A stretch of DNA of 28,846 bases from Candidatus Tyrphobacter sp. (GCA_035532135.1 DATKRQ010000041.1:1-28846); one strand, 5' to 3'; positions 11,389-17,532 are shown, counted from the first letter of the stretch. A program made the numbers and translations. The notes: generated by a model not told the origin, from the letters alone.

Positions 11389-12078
11389 ATGGTAACTCAG
11401 AGTTTGATTGACGCCATTGTCTCTCCGCTTAACCAGGTTTGGAATGAGTTTGTCGCGCTTTTGCCGGCGGCGGTTGGCGCTTTGGTCGCCTTCATCGTCG
11501 GCATTTTCGTTTCGGCCATTCTTGGATCGGCGGTGGAAAAGGGATTGAGGTCCGTCAAGGTTGATACCGTTTTGGAGAATACCGAATTCGATAAAGACCT
11601 GAAGCGAGCCGGAATTAATACGACCGTTTCTCGTTTCCTCGGCCGGCTGGTCTATTGGTTTTTCCTGATCGCGACCTTGGTTTTGGTGATTGGCATCCTG
11701 TTCGGTTCGCCGGCCAGCGCTTTCGCCATCATCCAACCGATCTTGTCTTATATACCTCAGGTGGTCGTGGCCGTCATTATCCTTTTGGGAGCGATTATCT
11801 TGGCCAACTTCTTGCGTGGGGTGATTAAAACCGCCGCCGCCGGGGCCAAGGTCCATTCGACCAAGTTTTTGGGCGCCATCGCTTGGTGGTCCGTCTTGGT
11901 CTTTGGCGTGATTGCCGCGTTAACGCAATTGGAAATCGCTTCGCAATTCCTTTACGCTATCTTTGTGGCCTTAATCGGCATGCTCGCTTTGGCTGGAGGT
12001 TTGGCCTTCGGTCTGGGGGGCAGGGAATTCGCCGCTTCTCTTTTAGAGAAGTTCAGGGAGCAGGTGGAAGAAAAATAG
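11389..12078 (+). CDS. Conserved TM-helix repeat membrane protein (MscS/CmpX-type N-terminal)
   Basis: Two repeats of the P.vv.A.iillG...a..l....k pattern, FG.GG at the C-terminus, about 5 TM segments. Confidence 0.75.
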   Translation: MVTQSLIDAIVSPLNQVWNEFVALLPAAVGALVAFIVGIFVSAILGSAVEKGLRSVKVDTVLENTEFDKDLKRAGINTTVSRFLGRLVYWFFLIATLVLVIGILFGSPASAFAIIQPILSYIPQVVVAVIILLGAIILANFLRGVIKTAAAGAKVHSTKFLGAIAWWSVLVFGVIAALTQLEIASQFLYAIFVALIGMLALAGGLAFGLGGREFAASLLEKFREQVEEK

Positions 12079-12099
12079 ATTCGGACGCCTGTTTTCAGT

Positions 12100-12136
12100 A
12101 ACTAAAAAACCGCTTGTGAGGAGCGGTTTTTTAGTT
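12100..12136. terminator. Bidirectional intrinsic terminator
   Basis: aactaaaaaaccgct-tgtgagg-agcggttttttagtt is a perfect 15-bp inverted repeat. Confidence 0.85.
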
Positions 12137-12147
12137 CTTTTCCGCTA

Positions 12148-12175
12148 TTGACAAGGGTTTCGCCTCGGCTATAAT
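12148..12175 (+). promoter_or_regulatory. rRNA promoter for the 23S-5S unit
   Basis: Consensus TTGACA-16 nt-TATAAT about 195 nt upstream of the 23S. Confidence 0.85.
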
Positions 12176-12943
12176 TCCCTTCGTGAAGATGAGTCGAAAG
12201 AGAGCAAGCATGAACGGCTGAAGAGGTCTCAGGTTTAGAGTGTCTCAGCGGCCGCTTCAAAGCGGCTTTTTCTTTCCTGCCGAGACGGCAAACGACTCGA
12301 CTGAAGTTTGACAATCAAATAGAGAAATAGAAACAAGGTGAGCATTTAAATGACCGTTTCTCGAAAATTTGAGGGTTATTAAGAGCGTATGGTGGATGCC
12401 TTGACGCAAAGTAGCGATGAAGGACGCGGCGTAGCGGCGATACGCCTCGGGGAGGTGCGTAGCAACCTTTGATCCGGGGATTTCCGAATGGGAAAACCTA
12501 ATCTGGCAAACCCAGATTGTTTCGAGCTTAAAAACTCGAATCGCACACCCGCTGAAGTGAAACATCTCAGTAAGCGGAGGAAAAGAAATCAAGTCTGTCC
12601 CTTGAGGGGCAGAAATATTCCCTAAGTAGCGGCGAGCGAAATGGGAAGAGCCCAAACCTCGATTTTTTGGCGCAAGTCAGAAAAACGGGGGGTTGTAAGA
12701 CTGGAAAATTTTAGTTGTTAACTATTGGTCCTAATTAATTTTAGTTATCAATAGTTAACGACTAAGGCTGGTTACAAATTGCTTTGTTAGTTGAAGGGAT
12801 TGGAAAGTCCCGCCAAAGAGAGTGAAAGCCTCGTAAACGAAAACAACAGCAACCAGTTTTTCTTGATCTTGAGTACTTCGAAGAATGAAAACTTTGAAGG
12901 AATCATCCTGAACTATCAGGAAAGGCTAAATATACTTTGTGAT

Positions 12944-12980
<37 letters not shown>

Positions 12981-15133
12981 CAGCCCTGTTAGGGCGGTGA
13001 AATAGACCTGAAACCGTACGCTTACAAAGAGTCGGAGCCCGGTCGCGTCGCTTGCGACGCGATGGGTGACGGCGTGCCTATTGAAGAATGAACCAACGAG
13101 TTTATCTTATTCCTTTGTCTAAGTTCCACGGAACGGAGGCGGAGGGAAACCGAGTCTTAATAGGGCGTCCCGCCGCAAGGCGGGGGAGGGATGAGATAAG
13201 ACCCGAAGCCAAGCGAGCTTGCCCCGGCCAGGGTGAACCCCGCCGAAAGGTGGGGGGAGGCCCGAACCGGTTGATCGTGCAACATCTTCGGATGAGCTGG
13301 GGTAAGAAGTGAAAAGCTAATCGAGCTTGGGAATAGCTGGTTCTCTCCGAAACAGTTTTAGGACTGGCGTCACGTGTTTCCTTCTGGGGGTAGAGCACTG
13401 GAAGGGCTTGAAAGGGCGAAAGCTCGCGAGCCCTATCAAACTCCGAATACCAGAAGATTAAAACGTGGCAGTTAGACTACGGGGGCTAAGCTCCGTGGTC
13501 GAGAGGGAAAAAGCCCTGATCGCCGTCTAAGGTCCCTAAATTTCTGCTAAGTGTTAAAGGTGGTCGCAAACCAGAGACAGGTAGGAGGTTGGCTTAGAGG
13601 TAGCCATCCTTTAAAGAGTGTGTAACAACTCACTACTCGATGGTTTACGGCGCCGAAAATTTACCGGGGCTAAAGCAGAATACCGAAGACGCGAATCCCG
13701 CCGCAAGGCGGGGTGGTAGGAGAGCATTCCTAACGCAGTGAAGCTCCAGCCGCGAGGCGGAGTGGAGCGTTGGGAAGAGAGAATGTTGGTATGAGTAACC
13801 TCAAAGTCAGTGAGAAACTGGCTCCCCGAAAATCCAAGGTTTCCGTGGCACTGGCAATCATCCACGGGTTAGGCGATCCTAAGGCAATGGCGAAAGCCGC
13901 AGCTAAATGGGAAGCTGGTTAATATTCCAGCCCTTCCGTATTTTTCGATGGAGTGACGGAAGACAGTAGACGAGGCACCTTATTGGTTTGGTGTCCTTGA
14001 TCGAGGACGATATCCAGGCAAATCCGGATATCTGCTTTTAATGGCGCGTCTCAGTTAAAAGGCGAGTCGGGGTTTTTGCCTCGGCAAGTTCGTCGAGCGT
14101 CTTTCCCAGAAAAACTTCTAAGGTTAGGAATATGGAAATCGTACCGGAAACCGACACAGGTGGATAGGGCGAGAAGCCCAAGGGGAACGAGTGATTCTCC
14201 GTTAAGGAACTCGGCAAAAAAGCGGCCGTAAGTTAGCAATAAGGCCTTCCCGCCAACGATATAGAAATATAAAGAAAGCGGGACGCAGCGAAAGTATCTC
14301 TGGCGACTGTTTATCAAAAACACAGCTCCCTGCGAACTCGTAAGAGGATGTATAGGGGGTGACGCCTGACCGATGCGAGAAGGTTAAGACTGGCGGTGGC
14401 GTGTAGCAATATGCGCTGCTGACTGGTTAAAGCCCTCGTCAATGTCAGCGGTAACTATAACCGTTCTAAGGTAGCGCATTTCCTTTTCGGGTAAGTTCCG
14501 AAGCGCACGAATGGCGTAACGACTGGAGAACTGTCTCAACGGAGAGCTCGGTGAAAATGCGATTCCCGTGAAGACGCGGGATACCTGCAGCGGGACGAAA
14601 AGACCCCGGGAGCTTTACTGTAGTCTGGTATTGGCTCTAGGGTTTGGCTGCGTAGTGTAGCGGGTAGGCTTTGAAGCTCCGATTTCGGTTGGAGTGGAGC
14701 CAACAATGAAACACCCGCCTTCCAAACTTTAGAATCTAACCAATGCGGCAAAAACGCATCGGGACAGTGCTTGATGGGCAGTTTTTCTGGGGCGGAATCC
14801 TCCTAAAGAGTAACGGAGGAGTTTATCAAGGTCAGCTAGGGTCGGATGGAAATCGACCTGGTCGCGTAAAGGCAGAAGCTGGCTTGACTGCAAGACTTAC
14901 AAGTCGCGCAGGTGCGAAAGCAGAACTTAGCGACCCGACGGCTCTTTATAGAAAGGCCGAAGATATCGGACAAAAGCTACCCCGGGGATAACAGGCTGGT
15001 TTCGTCCGAGCGTCCACAGCGACGACGAAGCTCGGCACCTCGATGTCGGCTCGCCCTAGCTCGGGGCTGAAGAAGGTCCCAAGAGTTTGGCTGTTCGCCA
15101 ATTAAAAGGGCACGCGAGCTGGGTTCAAACCGT

Positions 15134-15454
15134 CAAAAGAACCATATTACATCGATAATCACACGGCGGCGCAGAAGAGTAATCTTCTGCTGAGAAGTTG
15201 ACTCATATCGGTGAAGTCCTAACAATACGTTGCGACATCAACCTGTCGTATGTTGGGATAATACCGAGGGAAGTCGTACGTGCCTCTCTTCTTAAAGAGA
15301 GACGTGTATTGACCCCGTAGAGACTTGATCCGAATGGATCAGATTCGCCAATCGGCGGATAACACGTCAACCTCCTTTGATGCGTTCAGGATTTATTCTG
15401 AGCCTGTCGAAGGATGATGGTATAGTCCATACAATTAGTAATAATTGATTCATG
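15134..15454 (+). mobile_element. Group I intron (IA-like) at 23S position L2593, no ORF, 321 nt
   Basis: Exon aaaccgU|...uucaUG|cgtgagacag. Guide cacg+gcgg (15163-15170) pairs with the 3' exon cgtg (P10) and 5' exon ccgt (P1). P3 gttgac/gtcaac, P7 gact/agtc, P7.1 and P7.2 hairpins. Confidence 0.92.
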
Positions 15455-15517
15455 CGTGAGACAGGTTGGTCTCTATCTGCTGCAGGCGTTTAACATCTGA
15501 AGGAAGTCAACCCTAGT

Positions 15518-16268
15518 AAGCAATTTGCTACTTCGCGAAGTAATTCGCGATGACAATTCGGCTAATAACGGTGAAGTCTTGTAATGTTTGTTTCCGTTGA
15601 TAACAAAATTTACTTGCGGTCCAATAAATTTTGTACTTGAGGACCAAAATATTGTAAGATAATACCGTGGGAAGTCGGTCTAAAACTAATTTTGCTTATA
15701 TAGCCGGTTTTCTGGATGGCGATGGTAGCCTAATGCTTCAATTGAAAAAACGTAAGGATGGTAATAAGTCTCGGAACAGATTTATGGCGACCATCTGTTT
15801 TTATCAAGACATTCGGCACGCAAAACCATTGATTTGGATTCGTAATATTCTCGAAATTGGATATATATCCAAGAGAAAAGACAATATTGCCGAATTAAGA
15901 ATCAATGGCTATCGTCAGATTGAAGGATTGATAAAAGAATTGCTTCCTTTTATCAAATTTAAAAAGGTTCAGGCGAAATCTCTCTTGAAGTCAATAAAAA
16001 TTCTTCAAAAAAAGAAATTGCCGGAATCAGACTTGAGAAAACTGGTAGATAATATTCTTCTTATTCAGGAAGAGAATTATCGGACAAGAAGAAAGAAAAA
16101 TAAGCGAGAATTACTTAAGGTTTTAGGCTTGACCCCGTAACGACTGGATCCTCGCCGATGGCGGGGTGAAGATAGCGTTCGAACGCTATAACACGCCGAT
16201 CTCCCACCAGGCGGAAGCCTGAGGAGAAAGATATAGTCTACGCACATAGTGATATGTGATTTTACGTG
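15518..16268 (+). mobile_element. Group I intron (IA-like) in the sarcin-ricin loop (after U2656), 751 nt, with homing endonuclease
   Basis: Exon ccctagU|...acgtG|acgagaggacc restores CUAGUACGAGAGGAC. P1 tagt/gcta with U.G pair, P3 cggc/gccg, P7 gact/agtc with aagatatagtc, P7.1, P7.2 and P8 present. Confidence 0.92.
15667..16140 (+). CDS. Single-motif LAGLIDADG homing endonuclease (I-CreI-like)
   Basis: AYIAGFLDGDGS motif, F.Q motif, LLPFIKFKK.QA. AT-rich and located in the intron P6 loop. Confidence 0.93.
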   Translation: MGSRSKTNFAYIAGFLDGDGSLMLQLKKRKDGNKSRNRFMATICFYQDIRHAKPLIWIRNILEIGYISKRKDNIAELRINGYRQIEGLIKELLPFIKFKKVQAKSLLKSIKILQKKKLPESDLRKLVDNILLIQEENYRTRRKKNKRELLKVLGLTP

Positions 16269-16616
16269 ACGAGAGGACCGGGTTGAACGAACCTCTGGTG
16301 TACCGGCTTTGGTACCAACTGAATTGCCGGGTAGCTAAGTTCGGCCGGGATAAGCGCTGAAAGCATCTAAGTGCGAAGCCCACCCTAAGATTAGATGTAG
16401 GTCCCTGGAAGATGACCAGGTTGATAGGCTTTAGGTATAAGCTCCGTAAGGAGTGTTTATCTTTGATTTTGAAAGATCGACGGACGAGCTTTCTTCGGAA
16501 AGCGAAGCTGAAGGTTTGGAAGATGAAAGGATTTAGCCAAGAAGTACTAATAGACCGAAAAACCTTCAATTTTCGAAGCGGTCATTTAAATGTCCATCTT
16601 GTTTTCTTTAGTGATT

Positions 16617-16725
16617 TCCCGGTGATCTAGTCGGAAGTGTCCCACCTCTTCCCTTTCCGAACAGAGAAGTGAAAGCTTCCGACACCGATGATAGTTCGTT
16701 AGAGCAAAAGTAGGTTTCGCCGGGA
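16617..16725 (+). rRNA. rrf: 5S rRNA (ends approximate)
   Basis: tcccggtg...ccacctcttccctttccgaacagagaagtgaa...agtagg...ccggga, with terminal helix pairing. Confidence 0.92.
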
Positions 16726-16776
16726 TATCACTCAAGAAAACTTGGTTTTCTCGCCGACTTGTTGGATTATATTAAA

Positions 16777-17532
16777 GTGAATATAAGGATTCTGAAGCAG
16801 ACGGGCTATGGGATTTTTTTTCTCCTTTTTTGGCTCGCGGTAGGGTTTGCCGTTTATCGGCTTTATCCCCGGCCGGTGCCGAGCTGTTTTGACGGACTTA
16901 AAAACGGAGCCGAAACCGGCGTCGATTGCGGAGGCGGTTGCCCGCCTTGCGAGCTTAAGTCAGCCCGATTAAAGACTGGGGAAGTCCTTGTTTTCAAAGC
17001 CGGCCCGACGGCGTCGGTTTTGGCCGTCCGGGTTACGAACCCGGTCAAGGATTACGGGGCGAGATTCAATTATCAACTTGATGTTCTCGGCAGTTTCGGA
17101 GTGAGGGCAAAATCGGAAAATGGCTCGGCTTTGATTCTGCCCGGGGGAGAGGAAGCGTTTGTTTTTCCGCCCGTCGCTCTGGCTTCGGATCAGATTACCG
17201 GCGCTTCTTTTAAAGTTTCGAACCTGCGTTGGCTCGGCTCAAAGGACACGCCTCATTATAAAATAGATATCACTCCCGGCGTCTTGAGTCCCTCGGCCTC
17301 GCCGCCTTATCTCGAGATCAACTTCGCGAACCCCCTGGCCGTGGCCGTCCCGCCCTTTTATCTCTCCGCTCTTGTTTCTGACGCTTCGGGCCGTCCGGTG
17401 GCCGCTTCGGAAAAAGAAATAATCGGTCTGTCCGCCGGGGCGACCGGCAAGGCCGTTCTCTTTTTCCCGCCGGGGTCTTTATTTTCAATCAAGAATTGGC
17501 AAACCGAAATTTATTGGCGCCCGGCTCAATGA
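16777..17532 (+). CDS. Hypothetical membrane-anchored protein with CxDGxxNxxExGxDCGGxCxxC motif
   Basis: N-terminal TM helix then SCFDGLKNGAETGVDCGGGCPPC. Start GTG 16777 is preferred over TTG 16759 but uncertain. Confidence 0.75.
   Translation: MNIRILKQTGYGIFFLLFWLAVGFAVYRLYPRPVPSCFDGLKNGAETGVDCGGGCPPCELKSARLKTGEVLVFKAGPTASVLAVRVTNPVKDYGARFNYQLDVLGSFGVRAKSENGSALILPGGEEAFVFPPVALASDQITGASFKVSNLRWLGSKDTPHYKIDITPGVLSPSASPPYLEINFANPLAVAVPPFYLSALVSDASGRPVAASEKEIIGLSAGATGKAVLFFPPGSLFSIKNWQTEIYWRPAQ

Follow-up and report, generated by a model that had tools for sequence, protein, structure and literature searches.

A predicted group I intron with a LAGLIDADG endonuclease gene in the sarcin-ricin loop of a CPR 23S rRNA gene and its removal in environmental RNA

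The 23S rRNA gene in the DNA analysed here (28,846 nucleotides from Candidatus Tyrphobacter sp., referred to as the window) is interrupted in the sarcin-ricin loop (SRL) by an insert that is best explained as a mobile group I intron of the CPR 23IS14 class, spliced in vivo and with an I-CreI-family enzyme encoded in P6. A probability of roughly 0.85 was assigned to this reading. The intron is well formed and adds a new member to a known and common class; it carries little weight as a discovery. What is new is that environmental RNA supports the removal and rejoining of a CPR SRL intron, which was only assumed in a 2024 survey (PMC11270868), and that a helix-by-helix model with covariation could be built in which P6 and the endonuclease gene are fused and both the start and the stop codon fall within the core. 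In addition, the enzymes of the L2656 clade have a predicted target among the most conserved DNA sequences known.

The host is a Parcubacteria-group (CPR/Patescibacteria) soil bacterium. Its assembly is 491 kb at 95% completeness, in keeping with CPR/Patescibacteria membership. A same-family genome (G021) shows no difference from a Candidatus Colwellbacteria MAG over the locus compared, and G050, which belongs to the same order, nearly matches a Candidatus Harrisonbacteria MAG (14 of 17 sampled 200-mers). Soil metagenomes are the best sources of the locus in both DNA and RNA.

The insertion site and removal of the insert from RNA

Local alignment placed positions 2435-2912 of the Rfam bacterial LSU model on 14950-16557 of the window with three gaps, of about 325 nt after GGGUUCAAACCGUC, of 759 nt (aligned as CCCUAGUA-[759]-GG) and of 81 nt near the 3' end of the 23S gene. 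This 3' part of the gene holds at least two group I introns. At the second gap the exon reads ...CAACCCTAGT (also read ...CCCTAGT) up to its final base at 15517, the 751-nt insert begins with AAGCAA at 15518 and ends with TTACGTG at 16268, and the exon resumes with ACGAGAGGACCGG at 16269. Excision of 15518-16268 makes the SRL sequence intact again, with U2656 on the 5' side of the intron and a terminal G, and the ligated-exon junction is CCCUAGU/ACGAGAGG (a slash marks the insertion point here and below). The original prediction had described the same restored loop and the same splice-site bases, and both the sequence and the LSU alignment agree with it. The boundary is ambiguous by one base (A15518 = A16269), and 15517/15518 was chosen because it is the only option with an exon-terminal U and an intron-terminal G. 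E. coli numbering is our own count from the anchors A2602, G2655 and A2660, and places the insert between U2656 and A2657.

Only one SRL copy is present in the 491-kb, 95% complete assembly, thus every ribosome needs the insert removed and splicing is obligatory, as had been proposed. DNA contigs from an independent soil run cross both junctions unbroken. These contigs, together with at least 127 other distinct introns with the same junctions, exclude a chance insert.

The spliced rRNA junction, which the original prediction had named as the thing to look for, was found in contigs from three metatranscriptomes. Part of the region was present in 18 public runs, of which these three are soil metatranscriptomes. 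The sequences mapped on 12300-16800 were assembled contigs rather than raw reads; they came from the three RNA runs, which may share one sampling campaign, and from one soil DNA run, and exon contigs were assigned to the window organism at 0-3 differences. The depth of the exon contigs was 660-1056, 630-1003 and 1003-1973 in RNA runs X4, X5 and X6 respectively, that of the intron was 3.6-5, 4-4.5 and 3-7, and the joint from 15517 to 16269 had a depth of 569, 668 and 1132. This joint skips exactly 751 bases, with one base fitting both sides. The DNA run (X1) gave 5.6-9 for the exons and 5.7-6.5 for the intron; the joint was absent from it, and a single contig ran continuously from 14969 to 15804. 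The intron is therefore about 100-300 times less abundant than the exons in RNA and equal to them in DNA.

The shorter flank of the joint is 21 nt, which is less than the 30 nt taken as safe in metagenomes. Among 60 relatives, all ten intron-less alleles within three mismatches of this flank differ from it by at least two bases, and 133 other intron-bearing loci differ by at least three, while the mapping threshold of 95% permits at most one mismatch in 21 nt. Given these mismatches in the relatives, the joint most likely comes from the window species' own RNA. We conclude that the intron was removed and the exons were ligated in vivo in the window species or a very near relative. Joints seen elsewhere in the 23S gene in the RNA runs (for example 13931-34 to 14140 and 12658 to 12956) were taken to be those of other organisms, since the window organism's own RNA contigs were continuous there or the joint was also found in DNA.

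The same soil DNA run and one RNA run also gave contigs with the intron flanks in which a loop of 26 nt or 12 nt replaces the ORF body (15677-16129). The form with the 26-nt loop had a depth of 25.9 in the DNA run compared to 6-9 for the ORF-bearing form. Versions of the L2656 intron with no ORF therefore coexist in the soil community, in a strain or in a close relative.

The first gap in the LSU alignment is a second, ORF-less group I intron at L2593, separated from the SRL intron by only 63 nt of exon. The two introns have core blocks in common and about 51% identity overall. The depth of the L2593 intron in the RNA runs was 4.5-7, whereas the flanking bins, where many organisms are mixed, reached tens of thousands, and no L2593 splice joint was among the joints listed for these runs.

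Other observations concern the surroundings of the intron. The 81 nt that have no counterpart in the Rfam bacterial LSU model occupy 16448-16528. RNA-run contigs have a depth of zero from 16528 onwards, including the 5S gene (16618-16725), and the DNA run covers this region. Upstream of the 23S-5S unit (11389-12369) there is no 16S gene in the window, and the 23S start lies about 290 nt beyond the last base (12078) of a protein-coding ORF. The rRNA genes appear to be unlinked.

The ribozyme core

As originally predicted, a group I intron occupies L2656; the assignment draws on the U.G pair in P1, covariation and Rfam E-values. The helices assigned to it are given in Table 1 together with the other features of the locus.

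Table 1. Features of the interrupted 23S rRNA gene, in window coordinates. MFE, minimum free energy fold; double changes are compensatory.
Feature	Position	Strand	Basis
23S rRNA gene (host)	12369..16557	+	Rfam LSU_rRNA_bacteria, 2106 bits over 5' part
Second group I intron, L2593, 321 nt, no ORF	15134-15454	+	Exon ...AAACCGU / CGUGAGACAG; Rfam Intron_gpI 37 bits, E 5e-7
End of 5' exon (ACCCUAGU), last base U2656	15510..15517	+	Sequence and LSU alignment
P1	15514..15530	+	U15514-A15530, A15515-U15529, G15516-C15528, U15517.G15527, A15518-U15526, A15519-U15525; read from sequence
Predicted group I intron at L2656, 751 nt	15518..16268	+	Rfam, covariation, RNA contigs
P2 hairpin, 7 bp, GUAA loop	15533..15550 (15533-39/15544-50)	+	MFE fold; many double changes in 6 of 7 pairs
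P3 5' strand	15558..15562, partner 16195-16199	+	At most 11 double changes per pair; MFE fold
P4 5' strand	15568..15573, partner 15663-15668	+	Alignment and MFE fold; nearly invariant
P5 and extension	15576..15660	+	P5 pairs 15577-80/15656-59 in consensus structure
ORF, 157 aa, GTG start, single-motif LAGLIDADG (I-CreI family)	15667..16140	+	Pfam and PDB matches
P6/P6a 5' strand	15669..15683, partner 16123-16136	+	At most 13 double changes per pair; MFE fold
P7 5' strand (GACU)	16142..16145, partner AGUC 16235-16238	+	P3/P7 pseudoknot; invariant ACGACU and AUAGUC blocks
Hairpin pair separating P7 from P3', interpreted as P7.1 and P7.2	16150..16189 (16150-66, 16172-89)	+	MFE fold; both 7 bp; segment energy -19 kcal/mol
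P3 3' strand	16195..16199	+	Covariation and MFE fold
P8 and inner hairpin, GGAA loop	16200..16227 (16200-04/16223-27)	+	Covariation and MFE fold
P7 3' strand, inside GAUAUAGUC	16235..16238	+	Invariant block; matches Rfam consensus GAUAUAGUC
P9 hairpin, 6 bp, GUGA loop	16243..16258 (16243-48/16253-58)	+	At most 10 double changes per pair; MFE fold
Terminal G (omega-G)	16268	+	Sequence
Start of 3' exon, ACGAGAGGACCGGG, A2657 onward	16269..16282	+	Sequence and LSU alignment

The internal guide sequence GCUA (15527-15530) pairs with exon UAGU to give U.G at the splice site, and the GCTAC block following the short hairpin loop is conserved in the same-site introns. The P1 extension varies in length and sequence with its pairing kept (L006, L022 and L120). 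RNAalifold on 21 ORF-less same-site introns found compensatory double changes in 30 of 51 consensus pairs, and the helices supported in this way are P2, P3, P4, P5, P6/P6a, P8 and P9. P1 and P7 are invariant, thus neither has covariation behind it, and P7 is consistent with the core. The unconstrained fold of the window intron with its ORF deleted recovered P2, P3, P4, P5, P6, P8 and P9 and the two hairpins between P7 and P3'. These hairpins suggest a subgroup IA-like core. In P5 the base alone is firm; its inner helix (GGUCC 15618-22 with GGACC 15641-45) was read from conserved blocks and the MFE fold pairs the inner part otherwise. No P10 pairing was evident in the window intron. The 3' end is G in all 129 introns extracted, though the search pattern demanded a G at this position.

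Two products of the folding programs were set aside. RNAalifold paired the guide GCUA with the UAGU of a P7 strand, which is an artefact as the 5' exon is absent from the alignment and P7' shares the four bases of the exon. The MFE fold placed P1 off by one register and missed P7, being unable to predict a pseudoknot.

The Rfam Intron_gpI model (RF00028) gave 20.5 bits (E 0.018) for the window intron with its ORF in place, and 41 bits (E 3.6e-9) and 22.4 bits for ORF-less relatives. These scores are significant by E-value, yet all are below the gathering score of 50 bits that defines membership of the family. The single Rfam group I model fits the L2656-intron subgroup poorly.

On this model the transcript would fold into a P1-P9 core resembling subgroup IA in which exon and guide would pair with U2656 in the U.G wobble, and the chemistry would presumably be two guanosine-initiated transesterifications. 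Removal of the intron and joining of the exons, both of which are shown by the RNA contigs, would rebuild the SRL.

The ORF body lies in the P6 loop. Its GTG start lies in the 3' strand of P4 and the first base of P6, and its TAA stop (16138-40) lies in J6/7. Owing to this placement the first and last four codons double as ribozyme core. An in-frame TAA at 15655-57 leaves the GTG at 15667 as the sole start upstream of the LAGLIDADG motif. The layout is common to 51 of 61 intact same-site relatives. Translation and ribozyme folding would be mutually exclusive given that the start and stop codons belong to P4/P6 and J6/7. For the L2656 site no description of start and stop codons inside the core was found in the literature.

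Distribution among CPR bacteria

The site had been thought unusual among LSU insertion sites, which turned out to be mistaken. Tsurumaki, Sato, Saito & Kanai (2024, J Bacteriol) surveyed 348 CPR 23S genes and catalogued position 2657 (23IS14) as a hot spot, a frequent site of LAGLIDADG_1-encoding group I introns in CPR that was stated to be previously unreported in other bacteria (PMC11270868). The insertion point, host clade, intron type, protein family and mixture of ORF-bearing and ORF-less forms are all the same as for the window intron, which shows no essential difference from this class and is one more member of it. The survey contains no RNA evidence for splicing (a transcriptome or RNA-seq is not mentioned), no helix-by-helix model of site 2657 and no assay of a 2657-site enzyme (PMC11270868). 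Literature searches found no paper in which an intron bears the label L2656; the labels L2654-L2660 led to unrelated papers alone, and the SRL combined with group I introns in 23S led to nothing relevant.

A scan of species representatives with a pattern running from P7 to the 3' junction matched at least 120 contigs. The same pattern matched 20 of 401 genomes in an even sample of the phylum compared to none for a reversed-pattern control, this 5% being a lower bound as the denominator is all genomes whether or not their SRL was assembled. The original prediction had also expected a wide potential homing range, but no such range was seen. Among the matches listed, the 80 titles are mostly CPR taxa and some are 'bacterium' alone, and the remainder belong to genomes of CPR size. 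Six contigs carrying the SRL intron are titled Pseudomonadales, Gammaproteobacteria, Mycoplasmatales or Nanoarchaeota (L046, L060, L079, L088, L094 and L097). Spread outside the CPR was rejected as an explanation of these, since the five of these genomes that were checked measure 0.2-1.3 Mb and have an SRL of bacterial type; mislabelling or misbinning probably accounts for the titles.

Seven orthologues with 58-73% identity were found when the proteins of 60 related genomes were searched. Six of the seven sit in inserts of 779-839 nt with exactly the same junctions, and in two more relatives this site holds inserts of 339 and 365 nt that lack the ORF. The window intron could be aligned end to end with eight relatives. 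The scan and the relatives together provided at least 127 distinct same-site introns, with L092 and L096 left out as wrongly delimited. Of these introns 78 are long (61 with the ORF intact from the core GTG, 8 broken from the core GTG and 9 without the exact core string), 17 are of intermediate length and 32 are ORF-less. The intact, decayed and ORF-less classes match the expectation for a cycle of gain, decay and loss of a homing endonuclease. In five of the ORF-less introns (L013:2110-2448, L010:2061-2425, L050, L057 and L122) the GTG and TAA are still in frame and form mini-ORFs of 11-24 codons. Five out of 32 is below the chance expectation of one in three, and no sign of frame-keeping selection was seen in the ORF-less introns.

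The host family comprises 36 genomes. Five have a close orthologue of the enzyme (58-73%) and three more have a match at just 31-34%, these probably being enzymes of other sites; one of these three genomes has an ORF-less intron at the L2656 site. An uninterrupted SRL was found in nine genomes of the family, and the intron is patchy within it. One genome of the family (G005) has both an intron-borne orthologue with 73% identity at a contig end (C16:9-479) and an uninterrupted SRL near the end of another contig (C14:66-97), which is either a presence/absence polymorphism breaking the assembly or contamination of the bin (about 3%).

The endonuclease and its predicted target

As had been predicted, a single-motif LAGLIDADG gene lies within the intron. 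The Pfam LAGLIDADG_1 model (PF00961) scored 35.8 bits compared to a cut-off of 23.1, and the motif IAGFLDGDGS occupies residues 12-21 of the 157 amino acids and aligns with the motifs of I-CreI-derived and I-MsoI proteins. The matches in the PDB were I-CvuI (1.9e-16), I-MsoI (1e-11) and I-CreI (1e-10). Alignment to these solved homodimers showed that the DGDG motif is kept, together with the active-site Gln and Lys, which align with Q47 and K98 of I-CreI. Identity to 60 orthologues is 45-72%. Across 61 orthologues conservation is strong in the N-terminal half, which fits one common DNA target.

In a tree of these enzymes, clustering was by site rather than by host. Those encoded in L2656 introns cluster together (SH-aLRT 94) inside a clade with 99% support that also contains the L2593 enzymes, as a separate group, and the enzymes of a site between about 2500 and 2580. 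The enzymes from sites around 1900 form a separate clade. One CPR enzyme of known activity is I-ShaI from the rRNA intron at 23IS7, which resembles I-CeuI (42% identity), cuts its own insertion site and dimerises as judged by cross-linking (PMC11270868). I-ShaI is also a single-domain protein encoded by a CPR rRNA intron and is a direct precedent for the mechanism proposed here, although its site differs from that of the window enzyme.

The intron could be real and spliced but no longer mobile, with vertical inheritance only and with a protein that is either an inactive remnant or a maturase. We consider this unlikely, although it is the alternative that survives best. Decay is common, as roughly one in five long same-site introns has a broken ORF and many introns are ORF-less. 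The start codon of the window gene is paired within P4 with no Shine-Dalgarno-like sequence seen before it, and the residue at the active-site position that aligns with R51 of I-CreI is His. However, the ORF is of full length with DGDG and the active-site Gln and Lys kept, the strong conservation among the 61 orthologues falls in the DNA-contacting half of the protein, and the intron is present patchily inside one host family. With regard to a maturase, no I-CreI-type homodimer is known to act as one.

A second possibility is that the endonuclease serves the L2593 site, where the window gene has an ORF-less intron 64 bases upstream. The best solved relatives, I-CreI, I-MsoI and I-CvuI, are all known as L2593 enzymes, and the core blocks of the window gene's own L2593 intron match those of the L2656 intron. 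The introns of these three enzymes, in green-algal chloroplast 23S genes, are IA3-type with the ORF in P6. The window enzyme is likewise single-motif, of about 160 amino acids and of the same fold family, and its ORF is also in the P6 loop. In contrast, the insertion site of the window intron is 63 nt downstream, making a different DNA target, and the hosts are CPR bacteria rather than organelles. As the L2656-intron enzymes stand apart in the tree from the L2593 enzymes of the same bacteria, several relatives hold both enzymes side by side and the identity to I-CreI-type enzymes is low, this possibility is very improbable. Least probable of all is an intervening sequence excised without ligation to leave a fragmented 23S rRNA, as known in bacterial 23S genes and probably in CPR too (PMC11270868), or an assembly artefact, given that RNA contigs bridge the exons directly, that covariation accompanies the conserved group I core, and that independent DNA contigs cover both junctions of an intron existing in at least 127 distinct forms.

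In the preferred reading of a mobile intron, the 157-aa protein would act as a homodimer, as suggested by its homology to the solved homodimers and by the cross-linking of I-ShaI. By the same homology, this homodimer would be expected to cut intron-less SRL DNA at a site of roughly 22 bp centred on the insertion point, and the intron would then spread as the cut is repaired from a copy that carries it. The rebuilt target CCCTAGT/ACGAGAG is symmetric at 5 of 7 positions about the insertion point, and among the centres of the spliced 23S it ranks in the top 1.6%. The symmetry score peaks exactly at the insertion point and is poor beyond +/-7 (5 of 11). Mobility is supported by this symmetry together with the intact, decayed and ORF-less length classes, the patchiness in the host family and the grouping of the enzymes by site.

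The inner site CCTAGT/ACGAGAGGACCGG was identical in every bacterial sequence examined, and is the same in E. coli. We give even odds to the proposal that the enzymes of L2656 introns make up a LAGLIDADG specificity class of their own, which cuts SRL-encoding DNA and could cut the rDNA of nearly any bacterium. The new endonuclease specificity of the original prediction stands only in a narrow sense, in that the literature searched contained no assay of any L2656-site enzyme, the assayed I-ShaI being a 23IS7 enzyme. If the proposal is true, these introns would be confined to the CPR by obstacles to DNA exchange or splicing and not by a shortage of targets.
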